Source: a virus (taxonomy: Duplodnaviria > Caudoviricetes). Taken from it: a DNA stretch of 58,639 bases. Of this stretch, positions 4,285-58,637 are shown one piece after another. Under the pieces are notes generated by a model that had not been told where the DNA came from, did no database searches, and saw nothing but the letters and a program-made list of their open reading frames with translations. Within the stretch, counting starts at the first letter, position 1, and each line of letters starts with the position of its first letter. The position numbers and the translations under genes are program-made. The stretch is taken from positions 1-58,639 of IMG/VR virus record IMGVR_UViG_3300025997_000012. One strand, written 5' to 3'.

Positions 4285-4360
4285 GGCTAATTAGTTAAAC
4301 TGGTTATAATGCATCCCTCATAAGGATGAGTTTGGGGTTCGATCCCCTGATTAGCTACCA
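4285..4360 (+). tRNA. tRNA-Met(CAT), elongator-like
   Basis: Acceptor GGCTAAT/ATTAGCT, anticodon arm CATCC-CTCATAA-GGATG, GGTTCGATCC, 3' ACCA. Confidence 0.85.
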
Positions 4361-19578: not shown

Positions 19579-20040
19579 TTATTTTTCGTAATATTCAGGA
19601 ATTAAATCCAATCCTTTCATCAATGACTGTTTAACGAAAACATTAGGCTGTCTATAAGCACCTAAATCCTCGAAACCAATCATAGTACCAACTTCTACAA
19701 CTGCACCAGAACGGCATACACCAGCGATACAGTGTACAACTACATTCATTTTATTTGCTTTAGCATGTTGTAATAAGTTAACAATACTTGCACATTGTTC
19801 GGTATTCATTCTGAATTCCCACGCAATATCAATTTCATTGTCTACATCAGCGAAGGTAAATTGATGAATTTCTTTGAACTCATTATATGGCTTCATAGTA
19901 GATAAACAGCATGTACAATTTTCATATGGAATAGGAAACTCTATACAAGGATCAACAATCTGAATCAACATAGAATTCTTTCCTGGATTAGGAAAATTAC
20001 CATGTTTAATATCATAAAATGATACATTTGTTATCCACAT
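19579..20040 (-). CDS. Protein tyrosine/dual-specificity phosphatase-like protein
   Basis: VVVHCIAGVCRSGAV (HCxxGxxRS), F.D acid loop, PN motif. Confidence 0.85.
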   Translation of the reverse strand: MWITNVSFYDIKHGNFPNPGKNSMLIQIVDPCIEFPIPYENCTCCLSTMKPYNEFKEIHQFTFADVDNEIDIAWEFRMNTEQCASIVNLLQHAKANKMNVVVHCIAGVCRSGAVVEVGTMIGFEDLGAYRQPNVFVKQSLMKGLDLIPEYYEK

Positions 20041-20048
20041 TTTATTAA

Positions 20049-20112
20049 TCCTTTTGTTTATTTGTTAAATTTATTATAACTATTAAAACATAACATGTAA
20101 ATGGTTATTTTC
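20049..20112 (-). promoter_or_regulatory. Early promoter cassette
   Basis: Reverse complement gives TTTACA-spacer-TATAAT...AACAAATAAACAAAAGGA. Confidence 0.8.
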
Positions 20113-21068: not shown

Positions 21069-21135
21069 CCTTTTTGTTTATTTGCTAATTTTATTATAAC
21101 TAATAAAACATAATATGTAAACAATAATTATTTTC
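21069..21135 (-). promoter_or_regulatory. Early promoter cassette
   Basis: Reverse complement GTTTACATATTATGTTTTATTAGTTATAAT. Confidence 0.85.
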
Positions 21136-21667: not shown

Positions 21668-21741
21668 TGTACCCAGCGCAGGACTCGAACCCGCTGTCAT
21701 GACTTCGTAAACCCTTGGTTTATCCATTAACCGAACTGGTT
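21668..21741 (-). tRNA. Degenerate tRNA-Arg(ACG)-like
   Basis: Good T arm GCGGG-TTCGAGT-CCTGC and D arm; poorly paired anticodon stem; no CCA. Confidence 0.45.
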
Positions 21742-22288
21742 AATTATATTTTTATTGTAACATTAAAATTATGTTTTTATGATCAAAACTGTGTTGATTA
21801 TCCAATAATTTTCATCTCTTCTACTAATTACATCTATAATGTCATCTGTTTTTACATTGATTCTAAATGGTCTAATTTTTTTCATCTAAATCACGATAAT
21901 ACAAAAATTCACATAAATGATATTTACTCAACGAAATTATTGATTTTTGTTAATCAATAATATATAAATGTCTATTTTTAATTTTTTCTAAAATATGTTT
22001 TGCCTTTATTGTAACTCCTACCAAATTAAAGTAAATTTTTATTAAAAATATGATTAAATTTGTTCAAAATATCTGTTTCGGCCATAACAAATATCATAAA
22101 ATTGTTTACTATGATATATTATACTAAAAATTAAAACAAATGTAAATACTAATTTAACAGTATTTTTCTTCTTATTCGTTTACTGACATACAATCAAACA
22201 CATGTAATAAGTAACACTTTGGTTATATGATGTCTAATGTATAGTACACACAACTATTATTACATGACGTGAACGTACTTTTGAGAAT

Positions 22289-22363
22289 TGGTGCCTCGTG
22301 TTGGAGTCGAACCAACGACCTGTCGATTATGAGTCGATTGCTCTACCGTTAAGCTAACAAGGC
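22289..22363 (-). tRNA. tRNA-CAT, Ile2 (lysidine)-like
   Basis: GCCTTGT/ACGAGGC acceptor, TCGA-CTCATAA-TCGA, CCA end; resembles bacterial Ile2. Confidence 0.85.
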
Positions 22364-22364
22364 G

Positions 22365-22438
22365 TGGACCTGGCATCCGGAATCGAACTGGAATCTAAGG
22401 ATTTGCAATCCATTATACTACCGTTATACTATACCAGT
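22365..22438 (-). tRNA. tRNA-Cys(GCA)
   Basis: Loop TT-GCA-AA, U discriminator, CCA. Confidence 0.8.
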
Positions 22439-22450
22439 TTAAAATATTTT

Positions 22451-22506
22451 CCTTATTTATTAAATCTTTTATAACAATAAAACATAATATGTAAAGAATT
22501 ATTTTT
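22451..22506 (-). promoter_or_regulatory. Early promoter cassette driving tRNAs
   Basis: Reverse complement TTTACATATTATGTTTTATTGTTATAAA. Confidence 0.7.
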
Positions 22507-22525
22507 ATTATTTACATTTAAAAAT

Positions 22526-22608
22526 TGGTACTAGTATATGAACTCGAACTATCAATACCAAAGCGAGGGATTCTAAGTCCCTCGTGTATACCATTCCACC
22601 ACACTAGT
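22526..22608 (-). tRNA. tRNA-Leu(TAG), weak T stem
   Basis: ACTAGTG/TACTAGT acceptor, AGGGA-CTTAGAA-TCCCT, long variable region, CCA. Confidence 0.7.
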
Positions 22609-22620
22609 ATTATAATTAAG

Positions 22621-23040
22621 AGGGAGTTTGTTAATAAGGCATATCTCCCAACTTGAACTAAATCAGCCTCAACAGACTACGCTACTAAACGAGTCTGTGC
22701 AAAAGTATTATCATTTGCGTTTATCTTTAAAATGTATCTTATTTTACGTGCTTCAATCTTTACACGACTCTCAGGTGCACCGTACATTACCCTGTCGAAA
22801 CCAGTACATCCCCATCAAGAGCACACTTATGTGTAAAAATTATACAAACAGTTCACATAATAAATTAATAACTACTCCTGCTCCACATGTATTGGCTAGA
22901 TACAACATGTTTCCAAACTTATGAGGTCTGTTGTAGTCACTATCTGTTGTATATAATTACCCTATAATGTTATAAATGTGCTTTTGGTGGAGATGGGGAG
23001 AGTCGAACACCCGTCCAGACCAACTTTATACACCATCAAC
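22621..23040 (-). ncRNA. ssrA: Circularly permuted (two-piece) tmRNA; tag ANDNTFAQTRLVA*
   Basis: Acceptor piece ...GGACGGGTGTTCGACTCTCCCCATCTCCACCA (CCA at 22987-22985) precedes coding piece GGGGATGTACTGGTTTCGACAGGG (from 22813); G3-U70 pair; tag frame 22718-22677. Confidence 0.9.
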
Positions 23041-23755
23041 GAATTTTATAATTCTTTTAATATTGTTTAACATCTTTTGGCAAATAAGTTAAAATATTCA
23101 TCACTGAAATAACATAGAGATATAGTAATGTTGTCATAAAATATTCTGCATTAAATAACCCATATATTGCATAATATGGTCCAAGTAAAAATACCATATG
23201 TAACTATTACCGATGGCATTAATACTAACCAACATTTTAGGATTAAAAAACAATAGCTATTGTTTTACATGTAAGCCGTTAGTAATATAAAAAATATTAA
23301 TGTTATTAACATGTATTCAAATGCTGATTCAGTGATAATAACATAAATCAACTTTAATGTTTTTGGTTTCATTAATAAGTCTTTAAGTTCATTGATTCGT
23401 CTTTCACAATTATTAATTTATTCAGTGCTTCCTTTGTTAATATAATCATAAACTTTTTCTTCAGTGATTGATTTATATTCAACATTAGTGATTGTTTCTA
23501 CATGATAAACTTTATCATAGTGGTCTTATTTAGCTCCTAGATTTTCACTTTTAATATCTACAATAAAGTACTTATTATCAACTTTAACAAATGCACTTCA
23601 TCCATCACTATAATAGTCTTGACAGCAAGGTAAATATTAATCACTAACCTCTTTAAAATATGGTACAATATCTGATATAGTTTTTAATTCTACAATTTTA
23701 CTCATTTTATATTACTATTTAATTTACATTAATTTCAACAATTTATTCATTAAAT

Positions 23756-23831
23756 GAGGTAACCGAATGGATTTGAACCAAGTCTTGAGTGATTTTAGGT
23801 CACTTACCTCTACCAATTAGGTAAGATGGCA
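23756..23831 (-). pseudogene. Degenerate tRNA-like sequence (loop CCTAAAA)
   Basis: D arm, AGTGA/TCACT anticodon stem and GGTTCAAATCC present; acceptor stem unpaired. Confidence 0.5.
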
Positions 23832-23870
23832 TTATTTTTAAATATTCTTTTTAAAAACACTTAAAACTAA

Positions 23871-23944
23871 TGGTGGGTTGTAAGGGAATCGAACCCTTAT
23901 AGACCGGTTAAAAGCCGGATATTCTACCGTTGAATTAACAACCC
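23871..23944 (-). tRNA. tRNA-Lys(TTT)
   Basis: GGGTTGT/ACAACCC, CT-TTT-AA loop, CCA. Confidence 0.9.
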
Positions 23945-23951
23945 GAAAGTT

Positions 23952-24028
23952 TGGTGGATCGCTTGGGAGTCGAACCCAAAACCTACGGGTTAAAAGCCCG
24001 GTGCTCTATCCAATTGAGCTAGCATTCC
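23952..24028 (-). tRNA. tRNA-Lys(TTT)
   Basis: CGGG-CTTTTAA-CCCG, GGTTCGACTCC, CCA. Confidence 0.85.
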
Positions 24029-24085
24029 ATATATTAAATTGTGGGGATTTTTTACCAGCAAACATCTTTCGTTTCATTTATATTT

Positions 24086-24150
24086 CCTTTTTTGTTTATT
24101 TGTTAAATTTATTATAACTAATAAAACATAATATGTAAACAATTATTTTC
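24086..24150 (-). promoter_or_regulatory. Early promoter cassette inside tRNA cluster
   Basis: Reverse complement GAAAATAATTGTTTACATATTATGTTTTATTAGTTATAATAAATTTAACAAATAAACAAAAAAGG. Confidence 0.85.
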
Positions 24151-24197
24151 ACAATTTTTCATTTTTAAATATTCTTTTTCATAAAAACACTTAAAAA

Positions 24198-24272
24198 TGG
24201 TAGTTCTGTCAAGAATCGAACTTGAATTTCACGATTATCAGTCGCGGGTAATAACCATTATACTACAGAACT
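24198..24272 (-). tRNA. tRNA-Ile(GAT)
   Basis: AGTTCTG/CAGAACT, CGCGA-CTGATAA-TCGTG, CCA. Confidence 0.9.
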
Positions 24273-24274
24273 AT

Positions 24275-24349
24275 TGGTGTCAACGGTTGGTAACGATCCA
24301 ACCTATCTGGTTCTTCAGACCCGTGCTAATTCATCTCAGCTACATTGAC
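24275..24349 (-). tRNA. tRNA-Phe(GAA), atypical T loop
   Basis: GTCAATG/CGTTGAC, CT-GAA-GA loop, T loop ATCGTTA, CCA. Confidence 0.8.
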
Positions 24350-24351
24350 AT

Positions 24352-24429
24352 TGGAGTGGGTTTAGGGGATTCGAACCTACGAATAACGGATTCAAAGTCC
24401 GCTGCGTTAAACCACTTCGCCACATCCCA
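24352..24429 (-). tRNA. tRNA-Gln(TTG), aberrant 3' arm
   Basis: Identical to the next copy through the T loop; 3' strand CCCCTAAACCCACTCCA pairs poorly. Confidence 0.6.
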
Positions 24430-24435
24430 TTATTT

Positions 24436-24512
24436 TGGCTGGGACGGAAGGATTCGAACCTACGAATAACGGATTCAAAGTCCGCTGCGTTAAACCACTT
24501 CGCCACATCCCA
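24436..24512 (-). tRNA. tRNA-Gln(TTG)
   Basis: TGGGATG/CGTCCCA, GCGGA-CTTTGAA-TCCGT, GCCA end. Confidence 0.9.
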
Positions 24513-24518
24513 TTAATT

Positions 24519-24593
24519 TGGTAGCGGTGGAGGGACTCGAACCCTCGTCCATTAGGTTATGAGCCTAATAGTCTGCCGCTGACGTACACCGCG
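24519..24593 (-). tRNA. tRNA-Met(CAT), initiator-like
   Basis: CGCGGTG/CACCGCT with unpaired C1-U72, TTAGG-CTCATAA-CCTAA, CCA. Confidence 0.85.
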
Positions 24594-24600
24594 TTAATTT

Positions 24601-24676
24601 TGGTGCCGAAAGTAGGACTTGAACCTACAACCTACTGATTACAAATCAGTTGCACTACCAGTTGTGCTATTTCGGC
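24601..24676 (-). tRNA. tRNA-Thr(TGT)
   Basis: GCCGAAA/TTTCGGC, ACTGA-TTTGTAA-TCAGT, CCA. Confidence 0.95.
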
Positions 24677-24746
24677 TTAAACAATTATTAAATTTACTAT
24701 ATTTAAAAATACTATTTAATGTTATTTTAATACTCTTAAATATAGT

Positions 24747-24814
24747 TGGCCAGAATGATAGGATTTGAACCTGCACCTTCCAAGGCGAGAGAACTACCAT
24801 TATCTTACATTCCG
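24747..24814 (-). pseudogene. tRNA-Pro(TGG) pseudogene with deletion in anticodon arm
   Basis: CGGAATG/CATTCTG acceptor and T arm intact; 3' strand of anticodon stem missing. Confidence 0.6.
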
Positions 24815-24825
24815 ATTATCAGTGT

Positions 24826-24899
24826 TGGTCTCTCTGGAAAGAATTGGACTTTCATTTTACGGTCCCAAACCGTATGCATTACCATTATACTACAGAGAG
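24826..24899 (-). tRNA. tRNA-Pro(TGG)
   Basis: CTCTCTG/CAGAGAG, TACGG-TTTGGGA-CCGTA, CCA; T loop TCCAATT is atypical. Confidence 0.8.
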
Positions 24900-51529: not shown

Positions 51530-52855
51530 ATGCAAAAAATTCAAGCTTTACTTGAAAGTTCTAAATATACACCATTATCTGAAGCAGATAACGTTTCAAT
51601 GACTATGATGTTAAAGAACACAGAAATTGAAAATGAACGTCTAATGAACGAAGGTACTTTGTCTGGCGATGTTGCTCAATTTACACCAATCTTAATGCCT
51701 ATGGTTCGTAGAGTATATCCTAACTTGATTGCAAATGAGTTACTTGGTGTACAGCCTATGTCTATGCCTACTGGTTTTATTTATGCAATGACTAACCAAT
51801 ATACTGGTACTGCTGATACGGGTTCAAATGCTAATTCAATCATAATCGAGATGTCACGTCCTACTGGTTTAGTTGCTGGTGGTACAATTACTGGTGATAC
51901 TTCTGGCGCAGTAGCTACTGTTGTTTATGTTGAAGGTGCTAAGCTTTTAGTTGAACTTACAGCTGGTATTTTAACAGCTGAGACAATTAATACTGGTGCA
52001 GAAACTATTACAGGTATCTTTACTAACGAAGCATCATTCTCAAGAATATTCAAGAATTACACTGGTTCTTATTCAACTGCGGAAGCAGAACAATTATCAC
52101 GTGATATGCGTGAAGTTGGTTTCAGTATTGCGAAGAAAACTGTTGAAGCACGTTCAAGAGCTTTAAAAGGTCAATATACTGTTGAAATGTATCAAGATTT
52201 GAAAAATCAACATGGCAAATTAGCTGATGAAGAAATCATGAGTATGATGTCCTATGAAATGCAAGCTGAATTAGATCGTGAAGTTGTTGATTTTGTTAAT
52301 GCTAATGCAACACAATTGCAAAATACTACAAGCTTTACACAAGCATCTGATAACACAGGGCGTTGGGAAATTGAAAAATTCCGTAGAGAATCTGTTCGTA
52401 TCTCTTCAGAAGCAAAACAAATCGGTCTAGATACCAAGCGTGGACAAGGTAACATTCTTGTTGTATCTCCTAAAGTTTCTACAATGTTAGAACAAGCGGG
52501 TACTTTCAAGGTTGCTGAACAAAAAGCAAATATCAATACACCAGTTTCTGGTGGTGTTGCAGGTACATTTGATGGTAAATATAAAGTTGTTATCGATCAA
52601 TATGCTACTTCTGATTATTGCACAGTAATGTATAAAGGTGTTGACAGACGTGATGCAATGGGCTTCTTCGCTCCATATGTTCCTATGTCATTCACTAAAG
52701 TAACAAACGCAGACTCTGGTCAACCAGCAGTTATCGCGAAAACTCGTTATGCATTGGATACAATTCCTGGTGTTAGTTCGCCTACGTCAAATGACCGTGC
52801 TGCTACTTATGCTCGTTCATTCGGTATCGACTTCACAAATACTGTTTTAGCTTAA
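51530..52855 (+). CDS. gp23: Major capsid protein gp23
   Basis: PMVRR..P.LIA....GVQPM..PTG, V.ARSRALK, QDLK..HG, FFAPYVP, KTRY. Confidence 0.97.
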   Translation: MQKIQALLESSKYTPLSEADNVSMTMMLKNTEIENERLMNEGTLSGDVAQFTPILMPMVRRVYPNLIANELLGVQPMSMPTGFIYAMTNQYTGTADTGSNANSIIIEMSRPTGLVAGGTITGDTSGAVATVVYVEGAKLLVELTAGILTAETINTGAETITGIFTNEASFSRIFKNYTGSYSTAEAEQLSRDMREVGFSIAKKTVEARSRALKGQYTVEMYQDLKNQHGKLADEEIMSMMSYEMQAELDREVVDFVNANATQLQNTTSFTQASDNTGRWEIEKFRRESVRISSEAKQIGLDTKRGQGNILVVSPKVSTMLEQAGTFKVAEQKANINTPVSGGVAGTFDGKYKVVIDQYATSDYCTVMYKGVDRRDAMGFFAPYVPMSFTKVTNADSGQPAVIAKTRYALDTIPGVSSPTSNDRAATYARSFGIDFTNTVLA

Positions 52856-52908: not shown

Positions 52909-53769
52909 TTAAACAGCCATTGTAGCTTTAATACTATCCATAGGACTATAATTTAATAACGTATAATCAATAGTCTTTGTCAATAATAATTCATCTAATG
53001 TATAAAAATTGGGCATCTGTAATGTAGGCAATTTACGTGGTGCTCTCATTAACTGCTCATTAACTTGACCAAAATGATTCTTATAAATGTGACAATCACC
53101 ACCTACCCAAATAAATTCACCTACGTGTAATCCTGTAATCTGCGCAAACATATGTGTTAATAATGAATAACTTGCTATATTAAATGGTACACCCAAAAAC
53201 ATATCAGCACTTCTTTGATACAACTGACAAGATAACTTGCCATTTACTACTCTGAATTGTGATAATACATGACATGGCGGTAATGCCATTTGATCAATTT
53301 GTAAAGGATTCCATGCACTTAATAAGATTCTTCTAGAATCTGGATTATCCATAATTTCATTCAATACATTAACAATTTGATCTACATTTTCATTGTTAAA
53401 TCTTCTCCATTGCCCACCATAAACAGGTCCTAATTCTTTCCTTTTGTTATTATTAATATATCCTAATTTTACACCTTGGGAATCAGCATTAGCAGTCCAA
53501 ATTGTTTTCTTATCAGCCAAATTTAATCTATCATCTTCATATAAAATTTCAGCTAATCGTCTTTCGTTTTCTGAACCTTCTAAAAACCATAATAATTCAC
53601 TAACAACAGACTTCCATGCTAATCGTTTAGTCGTCATAGCTGGAAAACCTTCTTGTAAATTAAAGCGCATACTATATCCAAAAATACTTCTAGTTCCTAC
53701 ACCTGTTCTATCATTTACATCTTCACCATAATTTAAAATGTATTTTAATGAATCTAAATACTGTTTCAC
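52909..53769 (-). CDS. thyA: Thymidylate synthase
   Basis: DRTGVGT, ELLWFL.G, LGPVYG.QWR, MALPPCH, YQRSAD.FLGVPFN. Confidence 0.98.
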   Translation of the reverse strand: MKQYLDSLKYILNYGEDVNDRTGVGTRSIFGYSMRFNLQEGFPAMTTKRLAWKSVVSELLWFLEGSENERRLAEILYEDDRLNLADKKTIWTANADSQGVKLGYINNNKRKELGPVYGGQWRRFNNENVDQIVNVLNEIMDNPDSRRILLSAWNPLQIDQMALPPCHVLSQFRVVNGKLSCQLYQRSADMFLGVPFNIASYSLLTHMFAQITGLHVGEFIWVGGDCHIYKNHFGQVNEQLMRAPRKLPTLQMPNFYTLDELLLTKTIDYTLLNYSPMDSIKATMAV

Positions 53770-54260
53770 AATTTTCTCCTCAATGTTTTATAAATATTTC
53801 CTGTCTGTGTTCGTCTGATATCCACACATTCGAAATTAACTAATTCACTCAAATGAATAAATTTATCACAATCAAAATCACCTTTAATCTTAGTAACTGA
53901 TATTTCTTCAATTATGTCTAAACATTGCATAATTAAATCACGTCCACCAATAATCCATACACTTATTGGCCCATCTAATTCTTTAATAATCGATTTAATA
54001 TCGCCTGATATCTTAATCGCTCCTTCAAATTTTTTATCAGCATTACTAACTACAATATTAATTCTATCCTTTAATGGTGCAGGAAAACACGGATCATTCC
54101 ACGTATTACTACCCATCACAACAATAGAATTAGTCGTACAATGCTGAAAATGTTTCATGTCTTCTTTATTTTTAGGCCATGGTAATGTTCCATCTTTACC
54201 AAGTCCACCTTTCTCATCTATCGCAAATATCGCTTTTATCATGTTATTTTTGATTCCCAA
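53766..54260 (-). CDS. folA: Dihydrofolate reductase
   Basis: GLGKDG.LPW....DM.HF, VVMG..TW, PL..RINIV, IIGG. Confidence 0.95.
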   Translation of the reverse strand: MGIKNNMIKAIFAIDEKGGLGKDGTLPWPKNKEDMKHFQHCTTNSIVVMGSNTWNDPCFPAPLKDRINIVVSNADKKFEGAIKISGDIKSIIKELDGPISVWIIGGRDLIMQCLDIIEEISVTKIKGDFDCDKFIHLSELVNFECVDIRRTQTGNIYKTLRRKL

Positions 54261-54575
54261 TTTTTGTAATTTTTATTTAAACATTATTTTTGCTTCTTTA
54301 GAATTAATAAAACCCTTCATTTTCTAGATGATTTAGAATATATAATACTTAATTTAATGTATCACACAATTCTTCTAAAAATGTTTCTATTGTTCATTCC
54401 GCAGATTTAGATGCATTTACAGAATTAATAAATTATAAAAATTCTCGATTAACTTCTCCGACTTCTTCATTAAATTTCAGTACATTCTTCCAACGTGGTA
54501 TATCCATTAATGTTGCACTTAATTCCTCAGTTTTCCATAATCAATAAAATCTTTCATAATTCTCCTTTTTGTATA

Positions 54576-55511
54576 TTATAAATCCAAACATATTAATCCC
54601 TTAAAATTTTTCGTGTCAATATGATAAAATTTATCCTGTATAAAATAATGTTGTATTTCTCGATTAACATAAAACTTTGGTTGATTTACATTTATATTTT
54701 TGTTCATTTGTTTAATAATCTGTGAAATTCTACCTTTACTTTTGTTAGTTAATTTACCAACTTTAGTCATATTATGATGTAATAAAAATAAATTAACTAT
54801 ATTATATTCATCTTTGTCCAAATACAATTTAGTCAAATATTCAATCACAAATGTATATTTTTTATAGTACCCAATATTTTTTGCAATGGACATTAAACGG
54901 TTTGAACTAGCTTTAGATAAGTCTTGTAAAGTACATTTATTAAAAACAATGAATTCTTTTATAAACATGTAGTCATTATTCGTGAATTTTATATCAATAT
55001 ATAATTCTTGTACATCTTTTGGAGCATTTAATATATGTTTTCTTTTCCTTCTATTATCACTTGTTTTACTTGAAAACATTGTATTAAAGATTAACTTATT
55101 ATAATAATCTTTTGGTAATTTCATAATACATACGAATTCAATTATGTTAGATACACATTTATAATACTCGTTTTTTGTCAATAAACCAGGTTTGTATTCA
55201 GTACGAACTTGTTCTAAATTTTTATCGTAATAAACATTATATCCTTTATTATTTTCTTTTTTGTCAGTGTCTTTGATTCTTGTATAGTCTTTAATTTTAG
55301 ATAAGATTTTTATTTTTTCTTGAACATAATTAAGACATTCGTAATAATTATCAAAAGTTTTATACTCTCGATATGTATAATATATATTCTTTTCTATTAG
55401 TCTTTTTGTTATTCCATTTTTGATTCCATCACGACTAAATCCAAAATAAAACATCTTTAAAGAATCAAATCTAACTAAATAACATCTATATTTCATTTTA
55501 TATCTCTCCAT
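54576..55511 (-). CDS. Hypothetical protein, GIY-YIG-like N-terminus and C-terminal HTH
   Basis: CYLVRF....FYFGFSR...R; MTKVGKLTNKSKGRISQII resembles a sigma region-4 HTH. Confidence 0.45.
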   Translation of the reverse strand: MERYKMKYRCYLVRFDSLKMFYFGFSRDGIKNGITKRLIEKNIYYTYREYKTFDNYYECLNYVQEKIKILSKIKDYTRIKDTDKKENNKGYNVYYDKNLEQVRTEYKPGLLTKNEYYKCVSNIIEFVCIMKLPKDYYNKLIFNTMFSSKTSDNRRKRKHILNAPKDVQELYIDIKFTNNDYMFIKEFIVFNKCTLQDLSKASSNRLMSIAKNIGYYKKYTFVIEYLTKLYLDKDEYNIVNLFLLHHNMTKVGKLTNKSKGRISQIIKQMNKNINVNQPKFYVNREIQHYFIQDKFYHIDTKNFKGLICLDL

Positions 55512-55575
55512 TTTAAATAATTATATCACAATTAAACATTTATGTAAATATGTTTATTATAAAAATACGAAATAA

Positions 55576-55583
55576 GCCGATAT
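55576..55583 (+). promoter_or_regulatory. sigma28 (FliA)-like -10 element GCCGATAT
   Basis: 7/8 match to GCCGATAA, 50 bp upstream of flagellin ATG; no canonical TAAA at 15-bp spacing. Confidence 0.55.
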
Positions 55584-55632
55584 ATTAATTGTAAACAGAA
55601 ACAAAATAAATTAATTAAAAGAGGATATAAAA

Positions 55633-56457
55633 ATGACATTATCTATTAACACAAATATCGGTTCAGTTATTGCTGGCAACCAATTGAATAAATTAAATAA
55701 TGAATATGGCTCATTACAGGAACAAGCAACAACTGGTAAAAAAATCAACAGAGCTGCAGATGATGCTGCAGGTATGGCAATCTTAATGGGAATGAAAAAA
55801 ACCTTCATGGGCAATGAATCAGCGATGAATAACATTACACGTGGTAAAGATTTGTTAGCAGTACAAGAAGAAGCAATGACTACTATAAACACAATGATGG
55901 AACGTTTAAAAGAACTAGCGGTAACATCGGCCGATGGTACAATGTCAGCCGCTGATAGAACAAAAAATAACACTGAAGCACAATCATTAATGGGTGAAAT
56001 GGATCGTATTGCAAAAGCAACTACATATAACGGAATACAATTATTAGATGGTTCTGTGACCTCTGTAACCTTACAGGTAGGTTCTGGAAATACTGTTAAT
56101 GATCAGATTGCTGTTACAAACTACGATGCTACATTAGCCAGTATGAACATTAATGGTGGTGATATATCAACTGTAGTAGGTGCACAAACATTCTTGGATA
56201 ATTTAGATATTGATAACACAACATTAACATCTGGTTTGTCATCTATTGGGTCTACAACTAATCGATTAGATTATGCGAATGAAAACTTAGTTAACATGAA
56301 CAAATCATTAGAATCATCAATGTCAAGTATCGAAGATGCTGATATGGCGAAAGTTTCAGCACAATTAGCTAAAAATGAAACATTACAGCAATTAGGTTAT
56401 TCAATGTTAGCGAAATCTAATCAACAACCACGTTCTTATTTGAGTCTTTTCGGCTAA
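55633..56457 (+). CDS. fliC: Flagellin (minimal D0/D1 type)
   Basis: INTN, TGKKINRAADDAAGMAI, RLKELAV.SADGT, T.YNGIQLLDG, LQVG, IG...NRL, S.IEDADMA, SMLAKSNQ.P...LSL. Confidence 0.95.
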   Translation: MTLSINTNIGSVIAGNQLNKLNNEYGSLQEQATTGKKINRAADDAAGMAILMGMKKTFMGNESAMNNITRGKDLLAVQEEAMTTINTMMERLKELAVTSADGTMSAADRTKNNTEAQSLMGEMDRIAKATTYNGIQLLDGSVTSVTLQVGSGNTVNDQIAVTNYDATLASMNINGGDISTVVGAQTFLDNLDIDNTTLTSGLSSIGSTTNRLDYANENLVNMNKSLESSMSSIEDADMAKVSAQLAKNETLQQLGYSMLAKSNQQPRSYLSLFG

Positions 56458-56485
56458 AATTAGTCTAAAATACGAAAAAACAACT

Positions 56486-56534
56486 ATTTACATATTAGGT
56501 TTTATTAGTTATAATAAAATCTAACAAATAAAGG
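56486..56534 (+). promoter_or_regulatory. Early promoter cassette upstream of flaG-like gene
   Basis: TTTACA 56487-56492, 17 bp, TATAAT 56510-56515, AACAAATAAAGGA. Confidence 0.85.
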
Positions 56535-56543
56535 AATACTTAA

Positions 56544-56891
56544 ATGATTGAATCAATGAAAAATAATGATATTTCACGATTGTCCAATAGTATTCAGAAT
56601 GTGCAACCTGAAGCTTCAAAAGAGTTGCTGGCTAAAGAATTAAAAAAATCAGAAGGTTCTGAATTAAATATTAGTCTTGAAGCATATCAAAGATTAAAAG
56701 ATGATTGGGCTGAAGATAAAACTAAAACATCCTTAAAATTAGAGAAAGATGATTATGGTGATATTATATATCGCTTTTATGACAAGAAAACAGATGAATT
56801 AATTAAAGAAGTTCCATCAGAAGATGCTCGTAATAATTCTAAAAGAATTTCTGACTATCTTGACAAAATTACTAAAGATTTATTTAATTAA
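56544..56891 (+). CDS. flaG: FlaG-family flagellar protein
   Basis: L....D..G.II....DK.T.ELIKEVPSE......RI pattern; directly after flagellin as in bacterial loci. Confidence 0.75.
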   Translation: MIESMKNNDISRLSNSIQNVQPEASKELLAKELKKSEGSELNISLEAYQRLKDDWAEDKTKTSLKLEKDDYGDIIYRFYDKKTDELIKEVPSEDARNNSKRISDYLDKITKDLFN

Positions 56892-57191
56892 AGGAAAACA
56901 TGAAAAAATTAGTTTGTATGTCTTAACAACCTTTCTATTTTAGAACACTAAAAATGAAGTACGTGAAAGAATCGGCATTTGAAGTGGTTGTTCATGTTGT
57001 TCATGTTGTTTGAATACATCAAATACATAAACAACATATAATAAAATAATTGTAGTTGAATAAAACATGATTATTAAACTGGACGGTTTTTATACAATAA
57101 AAATAATGTCAGTGTTACTTACTGGTTTATAACATAACAAATTATAAGTCTTGTTGTACAAATTGACCCATTAAATAAGGAATTAAATAAA

Positions 57192-57599
57192 TTAAGATAA
57201 TTTCTTAATAGTAACGAATTTTTTCTGTTCTTGAATATATTCATCACTATTATTATAGAATGTATATCCAAAAACTCTTAATACATTATAAAATAATTTT
57301 CTTTTAATATAACCAACACCAGCCTCTTTTAACAGATCAATAAATAGTTGGTCTGATTCTTTTCTTGATAATAAATTAGTTGCATATAATGCGTCATGAA
57401 TTATACTTGGCCCAACATAATTACCATTCAATGGACAACCAACAATACTCCATGCAAATCTAGGAATAGTCGCTCCATCAGTTATAAATCCCTTTTTTAT
57501 GATTATGTCATAGTATTTATTTGTATATTGGAATTTCTTATAAATTTCATAATTATCTGAATTAATTCTTTTTAATATTGTTTCTGTTTTATAACTCAT
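57192..57599 (-). CDS. DUF1353-family protein
   Basis: GFITDGATIPR..W, IIHDALY, R.ESD.LF...L...GV, V.R.FG. Confidence 0.9.
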   Translation of the reverse strand: MSYKTETILKRINSDNYEIYKKFQYTNKYYDIIIKKGFITDGATIPRFAWSIVGCPLNGNYVGPSIIHDALYATNLLSRKESDQLFIDLLKEAGVGYIKRKLFYNVLRVFGYTFYNNSDEYIQEQKKFVTIKKLS

Positions 57600-57602
57600 A
57601 TT

Positions 57603-58637
57603 CTATATCCAATCTCTAAATATAGGAAACGAACCACCTGATTCAGGGATAATCATATCACGGTCCCAAGTTGCATGTATTCCGCCATGAGTTTCCGATG
57701 TTATTGCATATCTGAATTCGATTACGCCGGTTGTTAATATGGTTATTAAAAGTGATTGAGATACAAAACTATCGCGATAACTCTTAAAGATTACCTTAAC
57801 TAGGGTTTTAGGATATAAACTGGTGTCAAATGTATAAACTGGTGATACTAACGTTAAACGCTCAGTAATGCTTTTATATTCGAGAGACCACGCATCAAGC
57901 GTAATTTCTGCTGCTGATAATGTGAATGATGGTATTCTAAATTGAACTGTTGAATGGTCATTTCTGAATTCAAACAGCGTATTATCTGGAACTCCTGGCA
58001 AGCTTGTTAAATCTATACTCGAAACACTACCAAATCCTGTTGTTTGTGCACTAGGTAAATCAGTTAAATCATTATATGATATTTGTCCTTCTGTACTACC
58101 AGCAGTATGTGAGTGTACTGATGGTGCATAAGGATGTGTATGTCCTGTATCTGATTTGCCAGCTAAAGTTCCTGATAAATCAATAACATCACTCATAGGA
58201 TGTGTATGTCCTGTATCTGATTTGCCAGCTAAAGCTCCTGATAAATCAATAACATCACTCATAGGATGTGTATGTGTTGCATTAGCAAATGCAGTAGCAT
58301 GTTTACCATCTAACAAGTCAGCATTTAAACTAGTCACTAAAGCTGCACTTTGTACTGTAAAGGGTGCACCAGAAGTTGTTGTTGAGTTTAACACATTACC
58401 AGTAATATTACCTGTAGTATCATTATTACCTAATGTAGTAATATTACCATTGTTAATGATATTACCTAATGTATCAATGCTAGCATTATCATTTGATATA
58501 ATACCACCTGATGTAATATTACCTGTAGTATCATTATTACCTAATGTAGTAATATTACCATTGTTAATGATATTACCTAATGTATCAATGCTAGCATTAT
58601 CATTTGATATAATACCACCTGATGTAATATTACCTGT
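57603..58637 (-). CDS. Tail fibre protein, 3' part (continues beyond window)
   Basis: Frame open to window end; LNADLLDG.H, HTH/HSH motifs, GN-rich repeats. Confidence 0.8.
   Translation of the reverse strand, partial: TGNITSGGIISNDNASIDTLGNIINNGNITTLGNNDTTGNITSGGIISNDNASIDTLGNIINNGNITTLGNNDTTGNITGNVLNSTTTSGAPFTVQSAALVTSLNADLLDGKHATAFANATHTHPMSDVIDLSGALAGKSDTGHTHPMSDVIDLSGTLAGKSDTGHTHPYAPSVHSHTAGSTEGQISYNDLTDLPSAQTTGFGSVSSIDLTSLPGVPDNTLFEFRNDHSTVQFRIPSFTLSAAEITLDAWSLEYKSITERLTLVSPVYTFDTSLYPKTLVKVIFKSYRDSFVSQSLLITILTTGVIEFRYAITSETHGGIHATWDRDMIIPESGGSFPIFRDWI
58131..58275. repeat. 66-bp intragenic repeat (HTHPMSDVIDLSGxLAGKSDTG)
   Basis: AGGATGTGTATGT at 58131, 58197, 58263. Confidence 0.9.

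Follow-up and report, generated by a model that had tools for sequence, protein, structure and literature searches.

The stretch of DNA analysed here, IMG/VR virus record IMGVR_UViG_3300025997_000012 at its full length of 58,639 bp (hereafter the window; judged 29% complete), carries a short flagellin gene followed directly by a gene of the FlaG family, and the same pair recurs in a second, distantly related phage. Judged by their promoter motifs, the two genes are wired differently, with a host-type sigma-28 box ahead of the flagellin and a phage sigma-70-type cassette ahead of FlaG, and both are covered by contigs from four aquifer RNA libraries. We put at roughly 0.5 the probability that they form a two-gene accessory module in which FlaG, present from the onset of infection, would dock on FlhA of the flagellar export gate and throttle the export of flagellin. 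The elements of the putative module are as follows.

55576-55583, plus strand: sigma-28 (FliA/SigD)-type -10 box GCCGATAT, exact, 50 nt before the flagellin ATG
55633-56457, plus strand: short flagellin of 274 aa, D0/D1 only, both termini intact (Flagellin_N 3.4e-29, Flagellin_C 2.9e-19)
56487-56543, plus strand: sigma-70-type promoter and leader cassette of FlaG (-35 TTTACA at 56487-56492, -10 TATAAT at 56510-56515, AACAAATAAA leader, AAGGA ribosome-binding site)
56544-56891, plus strand: FlaG-family gene, 115 aa, ATG start, AAGGA ribosome-binding site 8 nt upstream

Identity of the FlaG gene and its pairing with flagellin

The FlaG open reading frame (ORF) starts 86 nt past the flagellin stop codon. 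Its residues 26-104 align with positions 17-93 of the 101-position Pfam FlaG profile (PF03646) at 21.2 bits and an E value of 3.2e-4. This single match was not accepted alone, because the score is weak and because the same model, at E<=10, also matches in 8 of 14 control genomes, some of them without flagella. When 1.84 billion representatives were searched exhaustively with HMMER, 20 proteins came up at E<=1e-3, the query included, and 8 at E<=1e-10. Once the long multi-stretch proteins P0008 (7139 aa) and P0016 (528 aa) had been left out, the remaining 18 were aligned. PF03646 is matched by every one of them at E<=0.01 (best 1.7e-8), and the profile built from them matches, in the PDB, YvyC of Bacillus subtilis (2hc5, 4e-5) and HpFlaG of Helicobacter pylori (6jsx, 3.7e-4); an unrelated designed protein lies at a similar 4.2e-4, but with no single stretch passing. 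Two of the relatives carry the source name 'uncharacterized FlaG/YvyC family protein', and across at least 17 diverged relatives (25-42% identity) the protein is intact. On these data we regard the family assignment as settled: judged by sequence, the ORF is a genuine if divergent member of the FlaG/YvyC family and belongs to a divergent subfamily of it.

The FlaG profile was also run over the ORFs of 80 IMG/VR flagellin loci, 80 metagenome flagellin loci and L164, an IMG/VR record of 154,123 bp, 85% complete, that bears the FlaG relative P0023. It matches in L164 and in 21 of the 80 metagenome loci, and in 13 of these 21 (13/80) the flagellin is followed on its own strand, at a distance of at most 200 nt, by a FlaG-like ORF. 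When the next ORF was inspected in six metagenome loci, picked because that ORF was long, it was FliD in 6/6. Since metagenome loci show the order flagellin-FlaG-FliD, the family occupies the position of FlaG in cells. The preliminary description of this DNA had placed a FlaG-family gene directly after flagellin, in the order of bacterial fliC-flaG-fliD loci but without fliD or fliS, and each of these statements is upheld: neither FliS nor FliD_C has a match in the window, itself a fragment, in L164, or in a further phage fragment, L003. FliW, TnpB-type (PF07282) and sigma-70 region-2 domains were likewise not found in the window, L164 or L003.

Other searches found no further relatives. A word-indexed protein search with the FlaG ORF returned the query alone, the phage GenBank collection contained no match to 55400-57100 (blastn) or to the FlaG ORF (tblastn), the single FlaG protein found no relative among the IMG/VR loci, and scans of genome contigs with FlaG proteins so named (FlaG/YvyC) by their sources gave no match. 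A spurious ORF or a chance Pfam hit was considered and rejected, because relatives exist and occupy the FlaG position in cellular loci.

The AlphaFold2 model made with the alignment reaches a pLDDT of ~87 at residues 60-115, where it places strands at 62-68, 74-80 and 86-90 and a helix at 93-114; the N-terminal ~40 residues are predicted to be disordered and are modelled with low confidence. Folding from the single sequence gave a poor model (pLDDT 48.7). A complex of FlaG residues 40-115, with the alignment, and residues 395-733 of FLHA_HELPY, a stand-in for the FlhA of the host, was predicted at 0.24 and 0.12 against a mark of 0.32, values that speak neither for nor against binding.

Turning to the other member of the pair, among the matches listed the window flagellin falls into a group of 27 clusters, all of 273-290 aa and 54-64% identical, with the next proteins at 41% identity or less. 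A quick maximum-likelihood tree of 116 rows was computed from those 115 of the 120 listed proteins that are 250-300 aa in size, together with the L164 flagellin. In it a long branch (length 0.91, SH-aLRT 100) sets the 27 clusters apart from the remaining rows, all sampled bacterial sequences included. Twelve records of the phage GenBank collection match the flagellin, at <60% identity and mostly as fragments or likely host DNA. Generic flagellins filled the results of a metagenome scan with the flagellin alignment (best match 39% identity), and no clade member came out of it.

Ten FlaG-like clusters, that of the window included, have a longest contig equal in nt to the longest contig of a flagellin-clade cluster (85428, 11578, 1793, 1258, 13364, 11982, 16300, 7792, 12779 and 10831 nt). 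Because these sizes are exactly equal, we take FlaG and flagellin to share the ten contigs. All ten FlaG-paired flagellin clusters lie outside a 15-row subclade (SH-aLRT 99 in the quick tree); P0049, taken as the L003 flagellin on account of a shared contig size of 17,939 nt, lies within it, and no member of this subclade has a FlaG partner by equal-size contigs. The relevant genes of the two other phages are these.

L164 7129-7953: flagellin, 274 aa, directly before FlaG
L164 8001-8417: FlaG, 138 aa, 27.8 bits, above the Pfam cut-off
L003 7998-8819: flagellin, 56% identical to that of the window, with a GC-rich hairpin after the gene

The preliminary description had suggested that the pair be looked for in other phage genomes, and L164 supplies such a case. 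Its capsid protein is only 23% identical to that of the window, for which reason we treat it as a distant phage lineage; the flagellins of the two phages align without a gap at 34% identity, and their FlaG proteins are 31% identical. In the quick tree the L164 flagellin falls outside the window's clade and joins bacterial flagellins (SH-aLRT 99, long branch), among which one carries the label Thiomicrorhabdus, and this grouping suggests a separate, independent capture. It also hints at a sulfur-oxidising gammaproteobacterial host for L164.

Promoter wiring and RNA libraries

The promoter of FlaG, TTTACA-N17-TATAAT at 56487-56515, matches the consensus at 11 of 12 positions. With up to one mismatch allowed, this motif occurs at 19 sites in the window where 5.4 are expected, and 0 of 100 shuffles reach 19. 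Eight of the sites share a near-identical block of ~46 nt that comprises the promoter, the AACAAATAAA leader and the ribosome-binding site. A search for the 46-nt form at <=3 mismatches gave 5 matches, and none in 100 shuffles; in 8/8 cassettes the block start and the first ATG are 56-62 nt apart. Enrichment is confined to the extended cassette, the counts of sigma-70-like sites in general being close to expectation (30 against 32.3 around the locus in the window, 8 against 7.9 in L164). The earlier proposal that FlaG had been rewired to a phage cassette finds support, the gene having its own copy, one of the eight, and possession of this copy argues for rewiring after capture. By analogy, the cassette looks like a T4-style early promoter set. 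The other copies precede small unknown ORFs, a phosphatase-like gene (19582-20040, 153 aa; Y_phosphatase 24.0 bits) and a tRNA cluster, and some of them probably drive RNA genes, since the ATG that follows opens only 5-46 codons. The FlaG gene of L164 has a promoter-like site of its own, TTGAGT-N17-TATAAT.

24094-24139, 20056-20101 and 21076-21121, minus strand: further cassette copies, before the tRNA cluster (tRNA-Lys from 24028) and the phosphatase-like gene

The flagellin has neither the sigma-70 cassette nor the T4-type late motif TATAAATA, which is absent within 1.8 kb upstream of it and anywhere downstream. It is preceded by GCCGATAT, which we take to be a -10 element of the sigma-28 (FliA/SigD) type; in the consensus for this sigma factor a -10 GCCGATAA/T is combined with a -35 TAAA ~15 nt upstream. 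In the whole window GCCGATA occurs a single time, at 55576. The L164 flagellin is likewise preceded, 63 nt before its ATG, by TAAC-N15-GCCGATAT. There are three occurrences of GCCGATAT in L164, the other two being on the opposite strand, within or at the end of long plus-strand ORFs. At L164 6800-6895, ~170-250 nt upstream of the sigma-28-type box of its flagellin, lie short sequences repeated in tandem, with units such as ACAAACAGTAT and GACCATAGCTT. That a phage-encoded FliA reads the GCCGATAT box was rejected, since no sigma-70 region-2 domain was found in the window fragment, L164 or L003.

Two smaller observations concern the same region. The exact 10-mer AAATACGAAA occurs twice on the plus strand of the window, at 55563-55572 before the GCCGATAT box and at 56468-56477, 10 nt before the FlaG cassette, perhaps left over from a duplication of the promoter region; at <=1 mismatch AAATACGAAA is not enriched (12 sites against 17 expected). 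No Rfam family matches within 55400-57300.

Four aquifer metatranscriptome runs, which hold 79-89% of the sampled words of the stretch and whose four studies share year and habitat and may be one campaign, were used, and their contigs were aligned to 53700-58000. Cover of the pair was as follows.

55622-57168: contig of RNA run X19
55609-57084: contig of RNA run X20, with sequencing adapter at both ends
55604-56897: contig of RNA run X21
55610-56496 and 56539-56829: separate pieces in RNA run X22

Both genes are covered in 4/4 runs, and one contig bridges the gap between them in 3/4. Transcription that starts at the flagellin promoter may therefore extend into FlaG as well. In all four runs the contigs start at 55604-55622, 21-39 nt past GCCGATAT, whereas the contigs of DNA runs extend further upstream; we treat this common start as a weak hint of a 5' end. 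The RNA contigs extend 190-280 nt past the FlaG stop and end at 57084-57169, short of the convergent DUF1353 gene. No terminator-like site was found past FlaG, and 56885-57190 folds no better than shuffles (z -0.93). Neither 55428-55571 nor 54708-54995 is covered by an RNA contig in the four runs, a result that carries no weight as silence. Taken together, the cover in the RNA libraries is consistent with expression of the module in nature and is no proof of it.

Genomic setting of the pair

The phage is T4-like and comes from groundwater. The major capsid protein (51530-52855) shares 71% identity with those of Vibrio phage Va1 and Va1 relatives and ~49% with those of T4-like Campylobacter phages, and the late motif TATAAATA stands upstream of the capsid gene. 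DNA runs labelled as groundwater or aquifer metagenomes contain the complete flagellin-FlaG stretch. In base composition FlaG, with a GC content of 26.7%, is like the phage as a whole (~27.6% for the window), and the flagellin (34.7%) resembles the capsid gene. The genes around the pair are these.

53766-54260, minus strand: DHFR-like gene, apparent left border of the inserted block (ORF and synteny with Va1)
54576-55511, minus strand: divergent ORF of 311 aa flanking the module, with its own TTTACA-N17-TATAAT at 55548-55520 (minus strand)
57192-57599, minus strand: DUF1353 gene, tail-fibre assembly chaperone-like, right border of the module (PF07087 3.2e-20, phrog_1158 8.8e-29)
57603-58637, minus strand: tail-fibre-like protein beyond the module, with phage tail repeats (PF12789 3.7e-14; GHTHP...DVIDLSG repeat units), running past the end of the window

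In Va1 the genes for DHFR, thymidylate synthase and DUF1353 are neighbours, the DUF1353 gene directly adjoining those for thymidylate synthase and DHFR. In the window ~2.9 kb lie between the DHFR and DUF1353 genes, and contain the divergent 311-aa ORF, the flagellin and FlaG. By this synteny, the ~2.9-kb block is an apparent insertion relative to Va1, placed in a variable spot between the thymidylate synthase/DHFR genes and those for tail fibres. The 311-aa ORF matches no Pfam or PHROG family; its nearest clusters in the language-model Atlas are GIY-YIG nucleases, also with a helix-turn-helix domain, at a score of 0.85, which is below the trust level and serves as a lead only. One possibility is a homing endonuclease by which the module is mobilised.

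Elsewhere in the window ARAGORN reports 13 tRNA genes at 21669-24899 on the minus strand, one more at 4285, and a permuted tmRNA-like gene at 22586-23077 with the tag ANDNTFAQTRLVA.

Readings of the pair and comparison with known systems

What a phage FlaG might do can be approached through its bacterial counterpart. According to Waller et al. (2024, PMC11536152), FlaG and FliS-flagellin complexes of Campylobacter jejuni antagonise each other at FlhA of the export gate. Deletion of flaG is described there as lengthening filaments in Vibrio cholerae, Pseudomonas aeruginosa and C. jejuni, and extra FlaG as making them mildly shorter, FlaG itself being secreted; a section heading of the paper states that FlaG acts on filaments of either flagellin. 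Transferred to the phage, this would give the following sequence of events. Upon entry of the phage DNA, host RNA polymerase would make FlaG from the sigma-70-type cassette, and the protein would dock on FlhA, a component of the flagellar export gate, at its cytoplasmic ring. By competing there with FliS-flagellin it would throttle filament growth and the large flux of flagellin export, regardless of the host checkpoint. Phage flagellin, for its part, would be made only where the host sigma-28 is active. The sigma-70 cassette for FlaG, together with the host sigma-28 box for flagellin, would imply that the phage reads the state of flagellar assembly in its host. The benefit of FlaG to the phage might lie in saved resources or in altered flagella. 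At the most general level, we think that the phage probably interferes with the swimming apparatus of its host during infection. The suggestion of the preliminary description that FlaG favours the phage flagellin finds no support: in the published mechanism the competition at FlhA is with FliS-flagellin, either flagellin is affected, and no phage chaperone was found.

Several observations weigh against export throttling by an early FlaG. To begin with, a blocker of flagellin export beside a flagellin gene is paradoxical if that flagellin is destined for export. At the level of the protein, the ORF's own 21.2 bits are under the 23.8-bit Pfam cut-off, Foldseek against the PDB gave no significant FlaG (2hc5 at rank 19, E 1.8; 6jsx at rank 25, E 2.1), and a wide VIA structure search had a best Z of 3.1 and no FlaG in its list. 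The preliminary description had named a FlaG profile or structure match as a check on the assignment; such a match comes from the family-wide profile comparison (18/18). The sigma-28 promoter of the window flagellin has a poor -35 element (TTAT at N15, or TAAA at N12), and the supposed early timing of the FlaG cassette is drawn from analogy with T4 early promoters and from the kinds of genes the cassettes drive. The RNA contigs give no strand, level, timing or transcript structure, DNA carry-over into the libraries is possible, and the spanning contigs allow for FlaG and flagellin being plainly co-transcribed, as in cells. Finally, by the family profile 0 of 80 other flagellin-bearing IMG/VR loci have a FlaG-like ORF, and in L003 a flagellin from the window's clade stands without a following FlaG or a preceding GCCGATA. 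FlaG is thus not obligatory for phage flagellins.

A more far-reaching version of export throttling can be formulated. Virulent T4-like phages would use FlaG as an immediate-early gatekeeper of the flagellar type III export gate, and the sigma-28-driven flagellin would both report on and exploit the host checkpoint. The pair would then either lock flagellin in the cytoplasm, rewiring flagellin-sensing regulators, or change and shorten the filament, sparing the progeny from adsorption to flagella. It would have been kept in at least two unrelated lineages, whose flagellins do not group together in the quick tree. As a whole we consider this version unlikely.

Among the alternatives, the one that survives best is that the pair remodels the filament: phage flagellin would be built into host filaments and FlaG would keep their length workable, so that motility is retuned and export is not shut down. 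This is possible, though we would not favour it. The gene order equals that of cellular flagellin-flaG-fliD loci, and the flagellin, which aligns over 274 aa without a gap to that of L164, retains both conserved termini. The sigma-28-type box ties expression of the flagellin to cells with a working export apparatus, and a single contig bridges the two genes in three of the four RNA libraries. Against these points, FlaG sits on its own phage cassette, independent of sigma-28, no FliD cap or FliS chaperone was found in the window or in L164, and L003 has a flagellin without FlaG. T4-type phages are lytic, and such a life leaves little time for rebuilding filaments. A precedent does exist in the temperate phage FRphi, for which the published account (PMC13418256) reports remodelling of flagella by a phage flagellin.

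That the pair manages a receptor appears improbable to us. If the phage or its competitors adsorb to flagella, shorter filaments (through FlaG) and a changed subunit (through the flagellin) would block superinfection and spare the progeny from the debris of lysed cells. Flagellin is the target of flagellotropic phages, as the same source notes (PMC13418256), and the module adjoins tail-fibre genes (DUF1353 and the tail-repeat protein), which is circumstantial. There is no sign, however, that flagella are the receptor of this phage, and the location may reflect merely a variable region.

Still less probable is that the pair acts as a cytoplasmic decoy, in which flagellin, its export blocked by FlaG, would accumulate and titrate flagellin-binding regulators of the host (FliS, and FliW-CsrA or FlgM circuits in hosts that have them), redirecting host translation or the sigma-28 regulon. 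This alternative would explain why a flagellin gene should be accompanied by an antagonist of export, and the failure to find a phage FliS or FliW in the window, L164 or L003 means that host proteins would be engaged. It is nevertheless purely inferential; the flagellin leader contains a single GGA motif, at the ribosome-binding site, and, as stated above, the region has no Rfam match.

We give very little credence to the pair being a hitch-hiker, taken over as one block from the flagellar locus of a bacterium, perhaps through the endonuclease-like neighbour, with a FlaG that has no role for the phage: the cellular gene order, the resemblance (a lead only) of the flanking ORF to GIY-YIG homing endonucleases and the grouping of the L164 flagellin with Thiomicrorhabdus-like bacterial flagellins, which shows that captures occur, are outweighed by the intact FlaG of the at least 17 relatives and its occurrence next to flagellins of the window's clade, on as many as 10 contigs, by the phage-specific promoter cassette and phage-like GC content of FlaG, and by the long branch that separates the window's flagellin clade from the sampled bacterial sequences.

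Throttling of flagellin export by FlaG, if it occurs, would matter for several reasons. Flagellin can be among the most abundant proteins of a motile cell, and the flagellum is both an organ of motility and a phage receptor. The known phage flagellins, from temperate enterobacterial phages, act on transcription through TldR; FlaG in environmental phages of a lytic type would suggest that another route exists, a post-translational one acting at the FlhA gate. The mechanism of FlaG was worked out only in 2024, and a compact viral version with a strong promoter would be a natural probe of gate control. Should the gatekeeper version hold, it would represent a class of host take-over not described before, one directed post-translationally at the flagellum.

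The phage protein resembles bacterial FlaG/YvyC in length (115 aa against ~117-121 aa), in the disordered N-terminus and strand-helix C-terminal domain of its model, in profile homology and in its position directly after the flagellin gene. Unlike the bacterial proteins, it is encoded by a virus, and its gene is not followed by fliD or fliS. The flaG gene of C. jejuni is reported to have sigma-54 and sigma-28 promoters (PMC11536152); the phage gene has the phage cassette instead.

The cassettes can be set beside the early promoters of T4-type phages, which are strong sigma-70 promoters with extended conservation. Both have near-consensus -35 and -10 elements, a 17-nt spacer, extended flanks and many copies placed before small accessory genes and tRNAs. 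The conserved block of the window differs in that it includes a shared leader and ribosome-binding site, at a fixed 56-62 nt to the ATG.

In the literature, supplements being outside the scope, the only phage-encoded flagellins found were those of temperate Enterobacter phages in the TldR/FRphi papers, and no report of a phage FlaG was found. The FRphi prophage of Enterobacter (TldR and FliC_P; Walker et al., Nat Microbiol 2026, PMC13418256) is similar in that a phage flagellin is combined with a second gene acting on the host flagellin supply. It differs in being temperate and in repressing the host flagellin gene by means of an RNA-guided transcription factor, whereas the window phage is T4-like. 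The partner in the window is FlaG, which would be expected to act post-translationally at the export gate, and PF07282 (TnpB/TldR) is absent from the window, L164 and L003.

A final parallel is with the gatekeepers of injectisome type III systems, an analogy drawn in PMC11536152: there too a small protein blocks the delivery of chaperone-substrate complexes at an export gate. The one proposed here would be encoded by a virus and would act on the flagellar system, the parallel being one of role and not of homology. Among phage modules acting on the host flagellum, the distinctive features of the present one are its split promoter wiring and its support in RNA libraries.

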